Shown: positions 2,814 to 62,588 of the stretch, piece by piece | Layout of the letters: each line of letters opens with the position of its first letter | Position numbering within the stretch: the first letter of the stretch is position 1 | Source of the DNA: an uncultured cyanobacterium | GTDB lineage: Bacteria; Cyanobacteriota; Cyanobacteriia; Cyanobacteriales; CAWCAG01 | Direction: 5' to 3' | Length of the DNA stretch: 64,000 nt | Assembly: GCA_963793425.1 (NCBI GenBank) | Contig: CAWCAG010000007.1 | Coordinates: 515,217 to 579,216, forward strand | Notes under the pieces: generated by a model | The model's input: the letters and a program-made list of their open reading frames with translations, nothing else | What the model was told of the DNA's origin: nothing | Database searches by the model: none | Program-made: the position numbers and the translations under genes

Positions 2814-3908
2814 ATGGTATTGCCAACTAATTTAACCAAACGCTATCAACATATTCTTTGGGCTACCGTTCGTCACTATATCGCTACAGCAGAACCAGTG
2901 GGTTCAAAAACTTTATATAATCAATATGACTTTAGGGTTGCCGCCACAATCCGTAATGCTATGGGGCGTTTAGAAAAGGCTGGTTTACTCTATCAACCCT
3001 ATACTTCTTCTGGTAGGATTCCTTCAGACTCTGGTTATCGAATTTATGTAGATAACCTCATGACTCCGGATGAAGCTTTAGGCAATAGGGTAGAAGAGTT
3101 GCTGAGTAGTAAGCTTAATTGGGATTCTTGGAGTTTCGAGGATCTTTTGCGGGGGGCAGCCCAGATTATTGCTACCCTAAGCGGTCATATTGCCCTAATT
3201 ACTATGCCCCAACATTCTACTACGAGATTGCGTTACTTAAAGTTAGTCGAAATTGGGCAACAACAAATCATGTTAATTGTGGTGACAGATTGCCATAAAT
3301 CTCAATCTATTCTTATGGAAAGAAACTCAACACAGAAAAGAGAAGATGGAGTAGATATACAGTTAACAGAAAGAGAACTAAATATGCTTTCTAATTTTCT
3401 TAATAGTAAGTTGCAAGGACATTTGCTATCAGAATTAGCTTGCATAGATTGGGGAGAATTAGACCGAGAATTTGAATGTTATGCAGATTTTTTGCAAGTA
3501 TTGCAAAAGGAATTAACTCGCCGTTCCCAAGCCCCTAAATCTAATCCTATTATGGTTAGGGGGCTTTCAGAAGTTCTACGCCAACCAGAATTTTCCCAAT
3601 TAGAACAAGTGCAAATGTTGCTACATTTATTAGAAGAAGAACAAGAGCAGCTTTTACCCTTAATCTTAGCTATCCCAGGAGCAGAAAGTAATCAAAAGCG
3701 AGTTACTGTGAGAATTGGTGCGGAAAATCCTCTTCAACCTTTGACAACTTGTACTTTAATTTCTGCTTTATATTGGCAAAATGAAGTCCCTTTAGGCAGT
3801 GTTGGTATTATCGGTCCAACGCGAATGTTATATGAAAATGCCATTCCTTTAGTAGAGTCAGCAGCAGATTATCTTTCTAGTACTTTAACTCAGGTTTTTG
3901 CATTTTAA
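2814..3908 (+). CDS. hrcA: heat-inducible transcription repressor HrcA
   Basis: 364 aa. N-terminal winged-helix region (ILWATVRHYIATAEPVGSKTL) and C-terminal GSVGIIGPTRM motif are typical of HrcA. Confidence 0.9.
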   Translation: MVLPTNLTKRYQHILWATVRHYIATAEPVGSKTLYNQYDFRVAATIRNAMGRLEKAGLLYQPYTSSGRIPSDSGYRIYVDNLMTPDEALGNRVEELLSSKLNWDSWSFEDLLRGAAQIIATLSGHIALITMPQHSTTRLRYLKLVEIGQQQIMLIVVTDCHKSQSILMERNSTQKREDGVDIQLTERELNMLSNFLNSKLQGHLLSELACIDWGELDREFECYADFLQVLQKELTRRSQAPKSNPIMVRGLSEVLRQPEFSQLEQVQMLLHLLEEEQEQLLPLILAIPGAESNQKRVTVRIGAENPLQPLTTCTLISALYWQNEVPLGSVGIIGPTRMLYENAIPLVESAADYLSSTLTQVFAF

Positions 3909-6090: not shown

Positions 6091-7413
6091 TTAAGACTCA
6101 TTCTTAATGGTAATTCTGCCTACACTTCTTGAATCTTTTCTAGATTGGATTAAATAAGCCCATATTTGTTCCCAATGTTCTGTATTAACAACTGTGACAC
6201 AACCTTGGCTCACCATACCTGGATGTAGATAGCGATCTCCACTATTACCGATACGGAACCAAGTTGTGGCGTAGTTACCATATGCGGCTCCAAGACTATG
6301 TTGATAGTCAGGAATTTCTAGATCGTATGTACCTGAAGGAATAGGATTGGTAGCATCCATATGTGCGCTTATGGGACCGAAGCTACCAAAATTAAACTGA
6401 CCATTCCACACATTTCCAAAATCCTTGACTTTTGTCCAAGTTACCTGAGCTGAACTATTAGGATTGAGGTAATGACCCAATTGGTCTGTGCTTACCTTTG
6501 CTTTTTTGTCTTTATAATACCCTTCGTGAATTTTAATCCTTCTTACGTCTCCTTCGTTAGTTAATAGGGTAACTTTGAGAGTATGTGGAAGTTCTACAGG
6601 CTCTCCAGGGATATGGAAAGGACCAAGATAACCACTTTTTAAATCAGCCCATCCTGGGTGCTGTGGAGCTACAATACGACGATACGTACCTCCTCTAGCA
6701 ATCAATTGCTCTTCATTTCCCCTAGAAGCTGCTTGCTCAGATTGCGAATCTTCCTTTTTAGCAACAAAGCTGTTGTTATCTGGAATGGATGAAGTGTTCT
6801 TTTGATAGTCTTTTAATAAAGGCTGAACAGACTCTCCAGCAGCTACCTTAGCCCCCACAGCATCAGCCTCCACCTCATACTTATCTCCCACCTTGCCCAT
6901 CTCCCCCGCAAGTTGTACCTTACCGGATTGTTGCTGGACAACATGAGTTCCTTCATGGGCAGCTAACTCAACGCTAGGAGGCTTTTGGAAAGCAATCTTG
7001 TTCCCCATTGTATAAGCCTGCGCCCCCAATTGCTTACTCGCTGCTGTTGCTGGGCCACCGATATAAGCTTGGACATGGGATAAATCTTGTCCAAATGACC
7101 TTTGAATTCTATCTAAATGGGGTAACGCTACAGGGGAACCTGTAAAACCTGTAGCAGCAATCTGGGTGGGAGAATGATTAGCTTCTTCACCTCCACATTT
7201 GGCACATTTAGCTTGTACCTGTAAACCAGAACACATATTATCCCACATGGCCTTTTCACCGGCTATTTGCTGTTGCGTTGATGACTTCTTTTGAACTACA
7301 GGATTAGGAGTAGCTTTTTGTTGTACAGGTTGAAAGTGAGGGGCAGAATTAATAGTTGGCTTTGGTACAGGAGGAATAAAAGAGCTAGATTTTTGGACAA
7401 GTTTGTGACTCAT
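6091..7413 (-). CDS. polymorphic toxin A: DUF4157 (HExxH) N-terminal domain + L,D-transpeptidase/Tlde1-like C-terminal domain
   Basis: 440 aa. DUF4157-like stretch LDRIQRSFGQDLSHVQAY...GAQAYTMGNKIAF...AAHEGTHVVQQ (HExxH encoded at 6943-6957). C-terminus GTYDLEI...TTWFRIG...DRYLHPGMVSQGCVTV (Cys codon at 6199-6201) fits the His...Ser-x-Gly-Cys pattern of YkuD/DUF2778-type folds. Confidence 0.75.
   Translation of the reverse strand: MSHKLVQKSSSFIPPVPKPTINSAPHFQPVQQKATPNPVVQKKSSTQQQIAGEKAMWDNMCSGLQVQAKCAKCGGEEANHSPTQIAATGFTGSPVALPHLDRIQRSFGQDLSHVQAYIGGPATAASKQLGAQAYTMGNKIAFQKPPSVELAAHEGTHVVQQQSGKVQLAGEMGKVGDKYEVEADAVGAKVAAGESVQPLLKDYQKNTSSIPDNNSFVAKKEDSQSEQAASRGNEEQLIARGGTYRRIVAPQHPGWADLKSGYLGPFHIPGEPVELPHTLKVTLLTNEGDVRRIKIHEGYYKDKKAKVSTDQLGHYLNPNSSAQVTWTKVKDFGNVWNGQFNFGSFGPISAHMDATNPIPSGTYDLEIPDYQHSLGAAYGNYATTWFRIGNSGDRYLHPGMVSQGCVTVVNTEHWEQIWAYLIQSRKDSRSVGRITIKNES
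7084..7413. repeat. copy 1 of a duplicated 330-bp toxin 5' module (codons 1-110)
   Basis: Near-identical to 8556-8885. I count 7 amino-acid substitutions in 110 codons. Homology ends exactly after codon 110 (FGQD). Confidence 0.9.
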
Positions 7414-7955: not shown

Positions 7956-8885
7956 CTAAATTTTCATTTTCCAACCAGGGGCCCATACAGGTGGAGAAGG
8001 ATTACCTAAATCAGCATCTCGTATACCTTGATGAGCTACAGAGTTACTGTTGGGACCTAATGGAAAATAACGAAGTTTTTGGGCTGCAATTCGACGCATT
8101 GTACCCACTAAGCTATCCCTGTATCTATTACAGGCTTTAAAATCCAAGTTAGTTGCTGCTTTAATTGTGCCACTGATATTTCTTCCCCAATCTACAGAAC
8201 TAGAATCATATTGCCCATAGCTAGTGACTAAGTATCCCCAAAAACCTTGATCCGTTCCACTAGAGTTGCTTGAATCAGTACGACTTACATCACTGGCAGT
8301 ACCACCAGTGCTACCACTACCGCTACTACCGCTAACACCTCCATTTGCACTCGGTCCACCGCGAAAAATTGTTTCTCTTGCAGATTCGATAGGTTTACCT
8401 TGCTCATCTACAGCTACTGGATCTGAAACTATAATGAAACCATGATTACCTACCCCAAAATCTACTCCGTAGTAGCGAAGCTCAACTTTACCTGGCCGAG
8501 TAAAAGATTTGGCAAGTTGTATTGTTGAGGCTCGGTCACTTTCTACTTTAGCTGAATCTTGTCCAAATGACCTTTGAATTCTATCTAAATGAGGTAACGC
8601 TAAAGGGGAACCTGTAAAACCTGTAGCAGCAATCTGGGTGGGAGAATGATTAGCTTCTTCACCTCCACATTTGGCACATTTAGCTTGTACCTGTAAACCA
8701 GAACGCATATTATCCCACATTGCCTTTTCACCGGCTACTTGCTGTTGCGTTGATGACTTCTTTTGAACAACCGGATTAGGACTAGCTTTTTGTTGTACAG
8801 GTTGAAAATGGGGAGCGGAACTAATCGTTGGCTTTGGTACAGGAGGAAGAAAAGAACTAGATTTTTGGACAAGTTGGTGACTCAT
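7956..8885 (-). CDS. polymorphic toxin B: same 110-aa N-terminal module as toxin A, unrelated C-terminus, no HExxH
   Basis: 309 aa. Residues 1-110 are about 94% identical to toxin A. It then diverges (SAKVESDRAS...), with a Gly/Ser-rich linker and a C-terminal region ending ...YFPLGPNSNSVAHQGIRDADLG... that I could not assign to a family. Confidence 0.7.
   Translation of the reverse strand: MSHQLVQKSSSFLPPVPKPTISSAPHFQPVQQKASPNPVVQKKSSTQQQVAGEKAMWDNMRSGLQVQAKCAKCGGEEANHSPTQIAATGFTGSPLALPHLDRIQRSFGQDSAKVESDRASTIQLAKSFTRPGKVELRYYGVDFGVGNHGFIIVSDPVAVDEQGKPIESARETIFRGGPSANGGVSGSSGSGSTGGTASDVSRTDSSNSSGTDQGFWGYLVTSYGQYDSSSVDWGRNISGTIKAATNLDFKACNRYRDSLVGTMRRIAAQKLRYFPLGPNSNSVAHQGIRDADLGNPSPPVWAPGWKMKI
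8556..8885. repeat. copy 2 of the duplicated 330-bp toxin 5' module
   Basis: See 7084-7413. Partial similarity continues a few nt into the 5' UTR/RBS. Confidence 0.9.
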
Positions 8886-8929: not shown

Positions 8930-9035
8930 ATGTCTCTTTCTCCTCGTTTATCTGACCTAATCTATCAAGCTAGTGAAGAACAATCTACCTATATAACCTT
9001 CAATTTAGCCCTAAAAACTTTTCCTCAACCTTTAT
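8930..9035 (+). pseudogene. AAA+ ATPase (Afp15/Pvc15-like), N-terminal fragment cut off by IS insertion
   Basis: ATG at 8930. The reading frame MSLSPRLSDLIYQASEEQSTYITFNLALKTFPQPL runs into the IS left end. Joining 9035 to 10376 continues the ORF in frame. Confidence 0.65.
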
Positions 9036-10375
9036 CAAAACGAAAAAAAGGTTTAAAACCCCGCCGTTTTAGGGCGGATTCGTTGATTTTTTCAGGTACA
9101 ATAAACATAATTTGCCAATAGCAACTGTTGCAACCAACATGAAAGCTAGATACAGATACAGATTTTACCCAACGAAGGAGCAGAAACACTCATTTGCTCA
9201 ACTATTTGGCTGTATCCGCGTCGTCTGGAATGATGCTCTGGCACAATGCAAAAGTGAAGGCAAAGCATTAAGCTACAACAAACTATCTAGCCTGTTAACC
9301 ATAGCCAAGAAGACAGAAGAAAGGATTTGGCTAAGGGATGTATCAGCAGTCCCCTTACAACAAACTTTAAGAAACTTAGCCGCAGCCTATAAAAACTTTT
9401 TCGACTCGTGCCGTGGTAAAAGGAAAGGTAAAAAAGTCTTACCACCAAGATTCAAAAAGCGGAGTAATCAACAAAGTGCAGCATTTACAAAATCAGCCTT
9501 CTCAATGGAAGGGCAACAAGTCTGCCTAACGAAAATTGGCAACATTACACCTATACTCTCAAGAGAACTTCCCTCAACTCCCACCTCTCTAACAGTAATC
9601 AAAGGTAGTGCGGATAGATACTTCATAAGCTTCGTAGTTGAAATACAACCACAAAACTTACCTAAGTGCCAATCAAGCATAGGAATAGACTTAGGAATAA
9701 CCGACTTTGCCACATTCAGTAATGGAGAGAAAATCAAAGCCCCAAAACCCTTAAAAAAGAAACTAAAGAAGCTCAGAAAACTACAACGTAACCTTGCCAG
9801 AAAGACGAAAGGTAGTAAGAGACGAGAATTAGCTAGAAGGAGAGTAGCCAAGCTTAACGCCAAGATAAAAGACACCAGAACAGATTTTCTACATAAGCTA
9901 TCAACTAAGATAATTCGTGAAAACCAAACGATAATCTTAGAAGATTTAAACGTATCGGGAATGCTCCGAAACCGTAAGTTATCCCGTGCAATTAGTGATT
10001 TAGGTTGGCGTAGTTTCAGAACTATGTTAGAAGCCAAATCAGTAATGTATGGCAGAGAATTTAGGGTAATAGATAGATGGGAACCCACATCACAGAGATG
10101 TCATGAGTGTGGTTTTAGAGGCGGCAAGCAGGAACTCTCTATTAGAGAATGGACTTGCTTAAACTGCGGTGCAGTTCACGATAGAGACGTTAATGCCGCC
10201 ATAAATATCAAAGTCGCGGGGGGACACTCTGAGACGATAAACGGACGTGGAGGGAAGCGTAAGACTACAACCGTAGCAGCACCCAAAGAAACGTCAACCC
10301 ACTTAAAACCTGTTCAACTTTCGTTGTTTGGGTAGATGAGGAATCCCCGTCTCTTTAGAGCGGGGAGGATGTCAA
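9036..10375 (+). mobile_element. IS200/IS605-family, tnpB-only (IS1341-type) element
   Basis: Boundaries were set by comparison with the second copy at 61148-61664. The shared sequence starts after TTTAT and ends ...GGATGTCAA. Subterminal hairpins: CCGCC-GTTTTAG-GGCGG near the left end and CCCCGTCTCT-TTAG-AGCGGGG near the right end. No tnpA gene. Confidence 0.85.
9139..10335 (+). CDS. tnpB: TnpB RNA-guided endonuclease (IS605 OrfB family)
   Basis: Probable ATG at 9139 ([12 protein letters not shown]). The ORF track extends to a TTG at 9112. RuvC motifs IGIDLGITDF, IILEDLNV and [11 protein letters not shown] are present, plus the zinc ribbon CHECG...CLNCG. Confidence 0.9.
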   Translation: MKARYRYRFYPTKEQKHSFAQLFGCIRVVWNDALAQCKSEGKALSYNKLSSLLTIAKKTEERIWLRDVSAVPLQQTLRNLAAAYKNFFDSCRGKRKGKKVLPPRFKKRSNQQSAAFTKSAFSMEGQQVCLTKIGNITPILSRELPSTPTSLTVIKGSADRYFISFVVEIQPQNLPKCQSSIGIDLGITDFATFSNGEKIKAPKPLKKKLKKLRKLQRNLARKTKGSKRRELARRRVAKLNAKIKDTRTDFLHKLSTKIIRENQTIILEDLNVSGMLRNRKLSRAISDLGWRSFRTMLEAKSVMYGREFRVIDRWEPTSQRCHECGFRGGKQELSIREWTCLNCGAVHDRDVNAAINIKVAGGHSETINGRGGKRKTTTVAAPKETSTHLKPVQLSLFG

Positions 10376-10395
10376 ACCATAGTCTTAATCCCCAT
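10180..10395 (+). ncRNA. predicted omega-RNA (scaffold over the tnpB 3' end and right end, plus a flank-derived guide)
   Basis: By analogy to characterised TnpB elements. The region is conserved in the deleted copy at 61.3-61.66 kb and contains the right-end hairpin. Exact 5' end and guide length are unknown. Confidence 0.4.
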
Positions 10396-12007: not shown

Positions 12008-12084
12008 TTAAAACCTACTCCCTTAAAAAATAACTAAATTTTCTTTGCAAATCGAAAAAACAGTAATACAATCATTATTCATAA

Positions 12085-13557
<1,473 letters not shown>

Positions 13558-27554: not shown

Positions 27555-27844
27555 AAGAGTTTATAAAACAACAATTCCAGCTTGTAAAATTAACTAGTTG
27601 AAGTTAAGGAGCTAAAAATAGCTTAGACGAAAGTATTTATCAGTATATTCTTCATGAATTCAGGAACATTCCTGAATTTATAACCAGAGGAACATCTTTT
27701 TCCCATCAACTATTGATTAGTTAGAAATAATTTATCCTTAGTAAACTTAAAGAAATTATCTCAAAAAGATTCTTTTCCTGAGAATCCTTCTTTTGAGCGA
27801 AATAGTTTGAATTAAGCACAGCTAAACAGGAGTTATAATTATTA

Positions 27845-46631: not shown

Positions 46632-47183
46632 CTAATTCAAATAAGTTGTACTAGTAGGATGGTTGTATAAAGGAGCAAGTAACCAAGAAACCAGAGAACG
46701 CTCTTTGTAATCTACGGTTAAATAAGCTTTACTAATATTAATTGTTGTTTCTGATTTCTTAGCACTACTTAAATTAGCACCTCGTAAATCAGTACCAGTT
46801 AAATCAGCACCGCTCAAATCAGCACCAGTTAAATCAGCACCAGTTAAATCAGCACCGCTCAAATCAACCCCTCGTAAATCAGCACTCCTTAAATTCGCTC
46901 CCCTCAGATCCGCTTCACTCAAATCTGCCGCAGTAAATTCTGCATAACTTAAATTAGCACGACTCAAATTAGCACCACTCAAATTAGCCCCTTCAAAAAT
47001 AGCTAGCTTGAGATTAGCTTGGCAAAAATTAATTCTTCTTAAGTTAAGCCAACTAAAGTTTTCATCACTAAAATTGAGTTGCTTAAAATCATATTCTCCG
47101 GCAGAATATCGCTGTAACAGCTCTGGAAGAGAAATTTTTTTCAAGTTATTTTTAGTAGCAGCACCTTCTTGTAGAAACACCAT
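46632..47183 (-). CDS. pentapeptide-repeat protein
   Basis: 183 aa. A long run of A(D/N)LxG/A(D/N)LSG pentapeptides. Confidence 0.9.
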   Translation of the reverse strand: MVFLQEGAATKNNLKKISLPELLQRYSAGEYDFKQLNFSDENFSWLNLRRINFCQANLKLAIFEGANLSGANLSRANLSYAEFTAADLSEADLRGANLRSADLRGVDLSGADLTGADLTGADLSGADLTGTDLRGANLSSAKKSETTINISKAYLTVDYKERSLVSWLLAPLYNHPTSTTYLN

Positions 47184-48155: not shown

Positions 48156-49262
48156 TTACTCTTCCACTGCTACAACAGCTTCTTCAGTTGAACTTTCTCC
48201 AGACTCAGAATCAGACTCAGAATCATTGTTATCTGCAACTGCTTCTGGTTCTGCAACTGCCTCTGGCTCTGCAACTGCCTCTGGTTCCGCAACTACCTCT
48301 GGCTCTGCAACTGCTTCTGGCTCTATGGTTTCCTCCGGTTCTACAACTGCCTCTGGTTCTGAACTTTGAAGCATTTTTTGACGATATTTTTCTGCCATTT
48401 CCTCAGCTTTCTCAAAAACCAAGTTCGGGTTTTTGAGCATATCACCAGGTTCTGGCTCTAGCTGCTTGGTAGAAAGAGAAATTCTGCCCCTTTCTGCATC
48501 TAGATCAATAATCATCACCTTCAATTCATCATTGACACCAAAGACACTATGGGGAGTATCGATATGATCGTGGGATATTTCTGAGATGTGTAACAAGCCG
48601 CTGACACCACCAATATCGATGAAAGCTCCGTAGGGTTTGATTCCTCGTACAGAACCAATCACAACTTCCCCTACTTGCAAACCATTCATCTTCCTTTCTA
48701 CTAAGGCGCGACGATGGCTAAGAACTAAACGATTACGATCTTCATCCACTTCCAAGAATTTAAGAGGTAGTTCCTGGGCGACTAAATCTTCTTTCGGCTG
48801 TCGCGTGCTGATGTGAGAGCCAGGAATAAAGCCTCGTAATCCTTCAATACGTACTAAGGCTCCTCCTCTATTCGTAGCGAATACGGCTGAGCGTACTGTA
48901 GCATCTTCATTTTGGAGTTGACGTACTCGCTCCCAAGCTCGCATATATTCTATGCGGCGAATAGAGAGAGTTAACTGCCCATCTTCATTCTCATCAGTTA
49001 GAATAAAGAATTCCCTCGTCTCATCAGATTGCAAGACTTCATTGGGATCGTCAACTCGGTTAATTGACATCTCTTGAATGGGAATGTAGGCAGCAGTTTT
49101 CGCACCAATGTCAATCAAAGCGCCCCTTGGTTCCATACTAAATACGGTTCCAGCGACAATATCTCCCGGACTAAAGTGATAGTCATATTTGTCTAAAAGG
49201 GCGGCAAAATCCTCATGAGTAAAACCAATATCTTTATTAACAGTTGTTTGCTGACTGACCAT
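48156..49262 (-). CDS. rpsA: 30S ribosomal protein S1 with repetitive acidic C-terminal extension
   Basis: 368 aa. Three S1 domains (GDIVAGTV..., DATVRSAVFATNRGGALVRIEGLRGFIPGSHIS, GEVVIGSVRGIKPYGAFIDIGGVSGLLHISE), then (EPEAVA)n. Confidence 0.9.
   Translation of the reverse strand: MVSQQTTVNKDIGFTHEDFAALLDKYDYHFSPGDIVAGTVFSMEPRGALIDIGAKTAAYIPIQEMSINRVDDPNEVLQSDETREFFILTDENEDGQLTLSIRRIEYMRAWERVRQLQNEDATVRSAVFATNRGGALVRIEGLRGFIPGSHISTRQPKEDLVAQELPLKFLEVDEDRNRLVLSHRRALVERKMNGLQVGEVVIGSVRGIKPYGAFIDIGGVSGLLHISEISHDHIDTPHSVFGVNDELKVMIIDLDAERGRISLSTKQLEPEPGDMLKNPNLVFEKAEEMAEKYRQKMLQSSEPEAVVEPEETIEPEAVAEPEVVAEPEAVAEPEAVAEPEAVADNNDSESDSESGESSTEEAVVAVEE
48233..48358. repeat. about seven tandem 18-bp units (TGCAACTGCCTCTGGCTC-like) encoding EPEAVA repeats
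   Basis: Read directly from the sequence, inside the 3' end of rpsA. Confidence 0.85.
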
Positions 49263-61025: not shown

Positions 61026-61286
61026 AATTAAAGTTTCTCCACCCTTGTTGCTAATTATTTATCGTCTGAAGGGCATGGTAGCTGTGTATTAACCCTATTG
61101 TCTAGTAGAAAAGCTTTAATCATAGAAAAACTGGGCATACTGTTTATCAAAACGAAAAAAGGTTTAAAACCCCGCCGTTTTAGGGCGGATTAGTTGGTCT
61201 TCTCAGGTATAATAAACATGATTCGCGAATAGCAGCTATTGCAGCCAACATGAAAGCCAGATACAGATACAGATTTTACCCAACAA

Positions 61287-61478
61287 ATGAGCAGAAAGCG
61301 GATGCGACCCCGCGTCGGCGAAAGACGCAAGGGAACGCGCACCAAGCAAGAACTCTCTATTCGAGAATGGACTTGCTTAAATTGTGGTGCAGTTCATGAC
61401 AGAGATGTTAACGCTGCTGTAAATATAAGAGGTGCGCTTAGCCTAACGGCAACGCTCCGCGACCCAACCGCAGTTTAA
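61287..61478 (+). pseudogene. chimeric tnpB remnant
   Basis: The ORF retains only [26 protein letters not shown] of TnpB. Its N-terminus comes from filler and its C-terminus from the nested insert. Confidence 0.8.
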
Positions 61479-61497
61479 CTACGGTTGGGTCGCACCT
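61427..61497. repeat. nested 71-nt hairpin insert (MITE-like) absent from the full-length copy
   Basis: The alignment AAATAT[insert]CAAAGTCGCGG against 10206-10220 defines the insert. Terminal inverted repeat GAGGTGCG/CGCACCTC. Inner perfect 12-bp stem GCGACCCAACCG (61459-61470) / CGGTTGGGTCGC (61482-61493). Confidence 0.7.
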
Positions 61498-61691
61498 CAA
61501 AGTCGCGGAGGGACACCCTGAGACTCTAAACGGACGTAGAGGCAGGTGTAAGACTACTACTGTAGCAGCAGCCTATGAAACGTCAACCCACTTAGAACCT
61601 GTTCAACTTTCGTTGTTTGGGTAGATGAGGAATCCCCGTCTCTCTAGAGCGGGGAGGATGTCAAGAATATACTGATGTATCTAAGCTGAAA

Positions 61692-62588
61692 ATGACTTTT
61701 AAGCCTGATCAGCCAACCAAGACCATTCTGATTTGCTCCGCTATTTTAGCAGTAGGGAGTGTTGCCTGTAGCAAGCTTGATTCCCTGCTTCCGTCTTCTC
61801 GTTCCCAAGGAACTGTTGCTCCGGTATCCTCAACTCCTCAACCTAGTCCTTCCCCCACCCTATCTCCTTCTCCTACACCTCCTTCAGCCGAAGAGGTTAA
61901 AAAAAATTACGAACGGGCTTTAGATGTTGCTGAAGGGGCAGAGGTAATAGCTAGCTCGGCTCAATCTCCTGAAGATTGGCAACTGGTGGCTAAGCGTTGG
62001 CAAAATGCGATTATTTTGTTAGAAACTGTTGACAAATCTCACCAAAGTTATCAAGATGCCCAGACAAAGCTTACTGAATACCAGAATGCTTTGAGTAATG
62101 CTACAGCAAAAGCAAAATTACCGCCTCAAGTTCAAGCCCAAAGGCCCAGAACAACTTCTATTTCTTCAGAAGATTCAGCCTCAACGAATAATGAAGAGGT
62201 AGCTTCTTCAGAAGGAGCAGAGGGAGAAGAGAAGGAAAAGTCGAAAGATAATCGAGAAGTATATAGTGCGGCAATTAGTCGTCGCTTGAATGGCAATCCA
62301 GTTATTAGTGTGACTTTAAATGGTTCTAGTCCCGCAGAAATGTCTATATCTCCTGGAGGAGGAAGTACAGTCATTACTCAATTCACTGCTACATCTCTCG
62401 GTATTGTGCCAGATGTGGATAAAAATGCCGCTAAAGTTAAATCAATTAATGCCGGAGGAGCGGTAGTTAATAATGTCAATGCTACTGTCTCTCCTAGTGC
62501 TGAGGTAGGAGTTTTAGGGGGAGAATTTTTTAGTAAGTACGATGTAGAAATTAAGGATAATGTGGTGGAATTTAGAGCTAAGAGCTAA
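61692..62588 (+). CDS. lipoprotein with Pro/Ser-rich linker and C-terminal retropepsin-like (catalytically degenerate) domain
   Basis: 298 aa. Lipobox SVAC. The C-terminus reads NGNPVISVTLNG...MSISPGGGSTVIT...LGI...VGVLGGEFFSKYDVEI. This aligns to the bacterial clan-AA aspartic protease pattern, but with S-P-G-G in place of D-T-G-A. Confidence 0.55.
   Translation: MTFKPDQPTKTILICSAILAVGSVACSKLDSLLPSSRSQGTVAPVSSTPQPSPSPTLSPSPTPPSAEEVKKNYERALDVAEGAEVIASSAQSPEDWQLVAKRWQNAIILLETVDKSHQSYQDAQTKLTEYQNALSNATAKAKLPPQVQAQRPRTTSISSEDSASTNNEEVASSEGAEGEEKEKSKDNREVYSAAISRRLNGNPVISVTLNGSSPAEMSISPGGGSTVITQFTATSLGIVPDVDKNAAKVKSINAGGAVVNNVNATVSPSAEVGVLGGEFFSKYDVEIKDNVVEFRAKS

Follow-up and report, generated by a model that had tools for sequence, protein, structure and literature searches.

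The window, by which we mean the whole stretch of 64,000 nucleotides analysed here, contains two copies of one transposable element on its plus strand, a long one at 9036-10375 and a short one of 517 bp, hereafter the mini, at 61148-61664. The mini lies directly 3' of the pentanucleotide TTTAT (61143-61147), the target or transposon-adjacent motif (TAM), between carA and a gene for a retropepsin-like aspartic protease, and is situated 122 nt upstream of the carA start and 27 nt upstream of the protease start (ATG at 61692). TTTAT also stands to the left of the long copy (9031-9035), and both copies terminate on the right with ...GGATGTCAA; after the last four bases, TCAA (61661-61664 in the mini), the flanks part, reading ACCATAG... 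beyond the long copy and GAATATAC... beyond the mini. A gap-tolerant alignment joins the two copies in three blocks, 9031-9186 with 61143-61297 (about 90% identity), 10125-10207 with 61343-61425 (87%) and 10208-10375 with 61497-61664 (91%). A 28-nt segment of the left end, which includes the left-end hairpin, is free of differences between them, and this segment and the right-end motif occur in the window only at the two copies, the chance expectation being 0 to 0.9. The initial annotation had already described a 517-bp copy in what it called the carA/lipoprotein intergenic region, with the shared TTTAT flank and left-end hairpin, about 16 tnpB codons and the right end against a different flank; all of these were recovered, the downstream gene being the aspartic protease.

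The left end of the mini (LE, 61148-61249) is about 90% identical to 9036-9138 and contains a subterminal hairpin CCGCC/GGCGG at 61172-61188, inside the 28-nt segment, and a TATAAT-like hexamer at 61208-61213. It is followed by codons 1-16 of tnpB (61250-61297), a GC-rich hairpin cassette (61298-61349), a 76-nt remnant coding for the TnpB zinc finger/RuvC-III region (61350-61425; 87% identity to 10125-10207), which is out of frame relative to the mini's start codon, an insert of 71 nt (61426-61496) and the guide-RNA (omega-RNA) scaffold together with the right end (RE, 61497-61664), all on the plus strand. No intact protein gene is left, the longest open reading frames being fragments of 49 and 63 aa. 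Imperfect subterminal hairpins are present at both ends, with no terminal inverted repeats, and the RE hairpin (61633-61655) covaries over 25 relatives. The terminus GGATGTCAA recurs in about 80 related loci of metagenomes and viral contigs, whose flanks are unrelated from the next base. The mini is an internally deleted tnpB-only (IS1341-like) element of the IS200/IS605 family.

The long copy retains what the mini has lost. Its intact ORF (9139-10335, 398 aa) matches Pfam HTH_OrfB_IS605, OrfB_IS605 and Cas12f1-like_TNB, and thus has the HTH, RuvC and zinc-finger parts of a TnpB; it aligns end to end with the ISDra2 TnpB structures (E=2.8e-73), the catalytic motifs GIDLG, ILEDL and HDRD being aligned. 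In the mini, only the 16 N-terminal codons and a TNB fragment remain, the latter recognised as a Cas12f1-like_TNB match on the ORF 61287-61478.

Two related species show the empty site and thereby prove the insertion of the mini. Orthologues of the protease (75% and 71% identity) adjoin carA in two related metagenomic genomes, and both loci, L096 and L097, represent the empty site; one of them reads ...GGGCATACTGTTTAT|TGATAAAA..., and the empty site of L096 ends ...CTGTTTAT exactly at the insertion point, where L097 has TTTAC. The carA-protease spacer measures 143 and 135 nt in these relatives, and in the window the removal of 61148-61664 leaves a colinear spacer of 149 nt; the comparison with L096 and L097 therefore defines a clean insertion of 517 nt 3' of TTTAT without target duplication, as in IS200/IS605 elements. 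Other assemblies of this Spirulinaceae species encode the window's carA protein beside an unaltered mini locus: L002 and L003 match over 666 nt with 0 mismatches, L004 and L005 overlap in part, and the locus has the same sequence in four assemblies. The block to the left of the insertion site (TTGTCTAGTAGAAAAGCTT...GGGCATACTGTTTAT; 61026-61147, compared with 2586-2728 of L096 and 2866-3000 of L097) is strongly conserved in the three species and is probably the divergent carA/protease control region; the mini places 517 nt between this block and the protease gene.

The search for the progenitor of the mini led away from the long copy. P0257, an intact TnpB of 410 aa in the 90% identity cluster of the window's TnpB, carries an insert between FRGGK and ELSIREW, in the zinc-ribbon loop, which counts 29 residues in P0257 alone among 121 full-length homologues and 12 residues in the others. 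The sixteen N-terminal codons of the mini are identical to those of P0257 (16/16), including N at residue 13, where the window's own TnpB has K, and the GC-rich cassette, consisting of 51 nt plus one extra base, encodes P0257 residues 332-347, so that the mini's ORF corresponds to P0257 residues 1-16 plus 331-347. Judged by protein identity, on which the link to P0257 rests, the mini is the product of a single in-frame deletion of 314 codons (942 nt) that joined P0257-type codons 1-16 to codon 331 onward. The initial annotation had proposed that about 940 bp of tnpB were replaced by unrelated GC-rich sequence; that reading has to give way to a plain deletion of 942 nt, since the 51 nt stand in frame at the same place in P0257. 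For the same reason, namely that P0257 has the cassette in an intact gene, we dropped the idea that the GC-rich segment is filler templated by microhomology from the cassette at the S1-S2 junction of a sister element.

Compared with the copies that can be read, the mini has a mosaic make-up. In the S2 segment it shares 97% identity with the type of L006 (the 3' end of a related tnpB in this species) and 85% with the window copy; its N-terminus, its cassette and the region of the S2 stem agree with the P0257 and L006 types, and only the last 74 nt (97% identity) match the window copy. By these sequence affinities the mini is not a derivative of the 9139-10335 copy, as had been assumed. Therefore, its divergence from the copy at 9036-10375, which had been read as a sign that the mini is not recent, does not date it and reflects subfamily ancestry rather than age alone. 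N-terminal fragments of P0257 type were found in two MAGs of the mini's species, MAG C and MAG D, the second of which also contains the mini's 63-aa ORF; with the P0257 type present in the same MAGs, a TnpB of this type is a likelier partner nuclease of the mini than the 9139-10335 copy.

Across the protein database, the window and the fetched loci there is one mini-bearing locus, the one at carA. Neither the window nor about 50 kb of contigs from the same species yielded a second mini, and the sole match in a contig scan with a 20-nt word from the RE was a chance one in a Gemmatales MAG. Because the mini is known at this single locus, it is more likely that a formerly complete copy decayed in place than that the element transposed in its miniature form. 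Independent derivatives that consist of the scaffold only exist in another cyanobacterial metagenome (L085, 114-281; L086, 403-570; L087, 1335-1502; also L067, L076 and L083), and in L087 a few N-terminal codons of tnpB precede the scaffold and right end, the fusion falling at the same ORF/scaffold boundary.

The cassette is the only unusual feature of the mini and the one worth following. Its core is identical at 30 of 35 positions (p<0.0005) to a 51-nt insert that occupies a different site in L006 (173-223) and L007 (3607-3657), and in one stem pair a T:A to C:G change is compensatory. The first site is the zinc-ribbon loop (P0257 and the mini) and the second the S1-S2 junction of the omega-RNA region (L006 and L007-L009; P0011, P0259, P0123 and P0127), and close sisters exist that are devoid of the cassette (P0001, P0258, P0262, P0002 and P0122). 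Both sites directly follow AAA, and both inserts are exactly 51 nt long and in frame. The cassette is read in different frames at its two sites and has therefore been conserved as a nucleotide structure, with compensatory changes. In the window, which has 39% GC overall, only three 40-nt stretches reach 70% GC or more, and the cassette segment is among them. A covariance model of the cassette (R2) found no further copy in the 272 kb searched and none outside tnpB elements, and the motif was absent from the viral-contig scans. We tentatively consider, as a possibility with the balance tilted against it, that the cassette is a very small structured module, mobile or copy-converting, which settles in tnpB elements upstream of the omega-RNA core; it could ride along with the transposon as a hitch-hiker or modulate how the guide RNA is processed or how stable it is. 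In other cyanobacteria, unrelated GC-rich hairpins sit at the S1-S2 junction, of 45 nt in L010 (Lusitaniella, 3603-3650) and 27 nt in L044 (about 1700-1730), and P0091 has an extra segment of 8 residues (24 nt) there, as seen from the protein level only. These three junction inserts are all in frame in the TnpB tail, and the junction looks like a hot spot for expansion hairpins.

The second foreign piece is the 71-nt insert at 61426-61496, which contains a perfect 12-bp hairpin (GCGACCCAACCG/CGGTTGGGTCGC) and is specific to the mini. It had been stated that the last 250 bp or so of the element were retained; retained they are, yet not contiguously, since this insert, which had been overlooked, splits the 3' part into 83 and 168 nt, and the earlier tally (150+48+250) falls about 70 nt short of 517. 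The insert has no counterpart in the full copy or in 22 relatives, and another copy was not found in the fetched loci, the protein database or the viral contigs. It stands 5 nt 5' of stem S1, at about -169 from the element end, the point at which members of a subfamily (L041-L045) carry 71-148 extra nt. Homology to the cassette was rejected (local alignment p=0.28; no match to model R2). Within the insert, 61467-61478 is an inverted copy of TTAAACTGCGGT, which is present in the full copy at about 10158-10169 (the codons of the tnpB zinc finger, CLNCG); this weakly hints at a template switch by fold-back (p about 0.004 per test). In ISDra2, a scaffold of 116 nt suffices and positions -231 to -117 of the omega-RNA are dispensable (PMC10097598); by analogy, both hairpin inserts of the mini would lie outside the core that TnpB needs. 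With the mini, nature provides a test of how well a TnpB guide RNA withstands a large structured insert at the 5' boundary.

The integrity of the scaffold was assessed with a covariance model (R1) built from 25 non-redundant 3' ends of the family, the mini being left out. RNAalifold on this alignment gave five helices with 31 pairs, 17 of which show compensatory double changes; standard pairs occupy 96.1% of the cells, as compared with 82% in column shuffles and 39-52% with slid partners. A predicted long-range pairing of the DRDV codons with GGATG..TC was set aside because it shows no compensatory change. R1 matches the window only twice, each time over the full model, at 10207-10375 (176 bits) and at 61496-61664 (165 bits), which bears out the earlier suggestion that the retained 3' part corresponds to the region where omega-RNAs are encoded. 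The 90 family scaffolds in the fetched loci score mostly 104-184 bits with a median near 165. The region has the position of an omega-RNA as well, lying at the 3' end of tnpB, ending at the RE boundary and being followed by a guide derived from the flank.

The mini differs from the long copy at 16 of 169 scaffold positions, mostly in variable columns, and one pair is swapped from G:C to C:G. Of the 31 model pairs, 29 are standard in the mini; of the other two, one lacks pairing in the full copy as well. One S1 pair has become A.C. S1 (61502-61524) and the RE hairpin form in the minimum-free-energy fold of the mini with the insert included, and the outer stem of S2 is made up of 61533-61536 and 61582-61585. 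At 61509 and 61538 the mini has G>A in invariant or nearly invariant columns, changes that correspond to VAGG to VAEG and GRGG to GRRG in the tnpB frame; since these columns fall in conserved VAGG and GRGG codons, their invariance in ORF-bearing copies may be a protein constraint that is gone in the mini. The scaffold (91% identity to the full copy) is no better preserved than the left end (90%) and thus gives no indication of added constraint. In the long copy, conservation at codon positions 1, 2 and 3 is strongly periodic before 10208 (0.75, 0.86 and 0.55), weaker at 10208-10240 (0.90, 0.94 and 0.74) and without any periodicity left at 10241-10300 (0.82, 0.80 and 0.81), which indicates that RNA-level constraint takes over at about S1 (10213). 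On the strength of the model, the mini's scaffold (61497-61664) looks complete and structurally sound. The proposal in the initial annotation that the mini is a non-autonomous deletion derivative which has kept both transposon ends, the whole omega-RNA scaffold and the guide is supported.

In Rfam, no family matches the scaffold or either insert at the gathering threshold; a TPP riboswitch elsewhere in the window (plus strand, 12079-12175), with 71 bits, is the only match to pass it. Weak matches to HgcC (RF00062) at 10250-10388 and 61550-61677 score 12-14 bits (E=2.4-3.6), where the gathering score is 50, and by Rfam's criterion the scaffold is not an HgcC member. The 3' part of the archaeal HgcC consensus, CCCCG..UUUAG..CGGGGAGGAGGUCA, resembles the RE hairpin and the GAGGAUGUCA end of both copies.

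The guide consists of the 16-20 nt after TCAA (GAATATACTGATGTAT...), of which 61665-61680 is host DNA directly 3' of the element. It had been proposed that this guide might direct the full-length TnpB against a second site. The window contains no other TTTAT-flanked match to it; a near match with two mismatches at 27635-27650 was rejected as an off-target, the TTTAT motif being absent there. The RNA would therefore direct TnpB solely to the mini's own vacated donor joint, the usual target in the homing role that has been demonstrated for TnpB of the IS605 family.

The best explanation of the locus, and one that we hold to be probable although well short of settled, is the insertion of a P0257-type element that subsequently lost codons 17-330 and gained the 71-nt insert, leaving a guide RNA usable in trans. 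The element, its cassette already in the zinc-ribbon loop, would have inserted 3' of TTTAT between carA and the aspartic-protease gene; one in-frame deletion would then have removed codons 17-330 (942 nt), and the 71-nt hairpin insert would also have been gained just upstream of the guide-RNA scaffold, so that both ends, the complete omega-RNA scaffold and the 16-nt guide next to it remained. Transcripts of the plus strand might start in the promoter region of the left end or stem from read-through in the direction of the protease gene, which begins 27 nt downstream. In such a transcript the last 168 nt of the element and the guide would fold into the family's omega-RNA, which an intact paralogous TnpB (of P0257 type or the 9139-10335 copy) could load in trans. 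The sole target of the complex would be the vacated donor joint TTTAT|GAATATACTG..., formed if a TnpA excises the element, and recombination after the cut would restore the element.

A serious rival, to which we give a smaller but real share of belief, is that the mini is an inert wreck, that is, a decaying pseudo-transposon in which the guide-RNA region has not yet been eroded and from which no omega-RNA is made or used. The destroyed and frameshifted ORF, the presence of a single copy and the foreign 71-nt insert would all suit a wreck, yet both hairpins that TnpA recognises and the TCAA end are intact. The scaffold has diverged as much as the left end and is substituted at two conserved columns; against this, its score lies in the middle of the family range, with nearly all model pairs standard. 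Promoter prediction, which calls TTGATT-17-CATAAT on the plus strand of the long copy's left end, yields no plus-strand promoter in the mini and no promoter or terminator signal above background there, and a crude regex scan of six-frame translations of the 64-kb window detected no TnpA motif, both of which are in keeping with a relic; intact partner TnpBs exist nevertheless, and the locus is the same in four assemblies.

It is far less probable that the mini was formed elsewhere, transposed as a mini and is one of several copies mobilised by TnpA, an active family of miniature transposons. Its complete ends and correct TAM would permit this and such PATEs are known (PMC10055086), but a protein search with the ORF that spans cassette, remnant and insert matches this locus only, and the window and the same-species contigs (about 50 kb) are devoid of a second copy. 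The earlier suggestion of mobilisation in trans accordingly finds no support, given one locus and a crude scan that detected no TnpA in the window. Equally improbable is retention as host regulatory DNA, a 5' leader or promoter of the protease gene or of carA, for which the distances of 27 and 122 nt to the two starts, the separation of the protease gene from the block conserved in relatives and the identity of four assemblies could be adduced, since the mini shows no promoter or terminator signal above background, the relatives do without it, and identity among assemblies of one population says little on selection.

Among known systems, IS608 of Helicobacter pylori is the paradigm of transposition; its right end finishes with TCAA 10 nt after the hairpin foot and has GAAT directly 5' of the RE hairpin, and it inserts 3' of a short specific motif, TTAC at the left end, without duplication. 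The window elements share the TCAA end 10 nt past the hairpin foot and the GAAT 5' of the hairpin, but differ in that no tnpA stands beside either copy and that their left-end target is TTTAT.

Non-autonomous derivatives of IS200/IS605 elements, called PATEs, have been described for ISGst of Geobacillus stearothermophilus and the IStrons of C. difficile (PMC10055086; 10.1101/2023.11.20.567912), and they often encode omega-RNAs that need to be used in trans (Meers et al., 2023; PMC10055086). The mini resembles them in having both ends with subterminal hairpins and no intact gene, in its insertion 3' of the TAM without duplication and, by analogy, in an omega-RNA beside the right end that would be usable only in trans by a TnpB encoded elsewhere. 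It differs from PATEs in being found as one copy, with no sign of the multi-copy spread, in keeping 16 start codons, the 76-nt zinc-finger remnant and two hairpin inserts, and in belonging to a cyanobacterial lineage, the Spirulinaceae. That a guide-RNA locus may be an orphan served in trans is an idea already published, to which the mini adds one cyanobacterial example, distinguished by an empty site, an identified progenitor type and a scaffold supported by covariation, and changes no concept; it also exposed a 51-nt hairpin cassette at two sites inside tnpB elements.

The TnpB-omega-RNA complex of ISDra2 (PDB 8EXA, 8H1J and 8BF8; PMC10097598) is similar in that the window's TnpB aligns over its full length and that the omega-RNA overlaps the tnpB 3' end and stops at the right end, with the flank as guide. 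The last stem-loop has UUUA at -20 to -17 in ISDra2 and at -22 to -19 in the present family, the mini having UCUA. The two differ in the TAM (TTGAT in ISDra2, TTTAT in the window family) and in the conserved scaffold, which is longer in the window family (about 163 nt from S1) and has an extra covarying 5' stem; ISDra2 has been studied experimentally, whereas the window family is known from sequence.

Some further observations concern the surroundings of the long copy and the rest of the window. The long element interrupts a host ORF (8930-9035/10376-11262), whose joined flanks give an open frame of about 330 aa with only a weak winged-helix match, and an ATG within its right end (10336) starts an ORF of 308 aa that runs downstream. 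Upstream of it, a direct repeat of 300 nt with 95% identity (7083-7382 and 8555-8854) lies in two adjacent minus-strand ORFs. Tandem arrays are present at 46731-47030, with 15-nt units (15 overlapping copies in a 90-nt register), and at 48214-48377, with 7 copies of an 18-nt unit; both are probably repeat-protein coding sequence.
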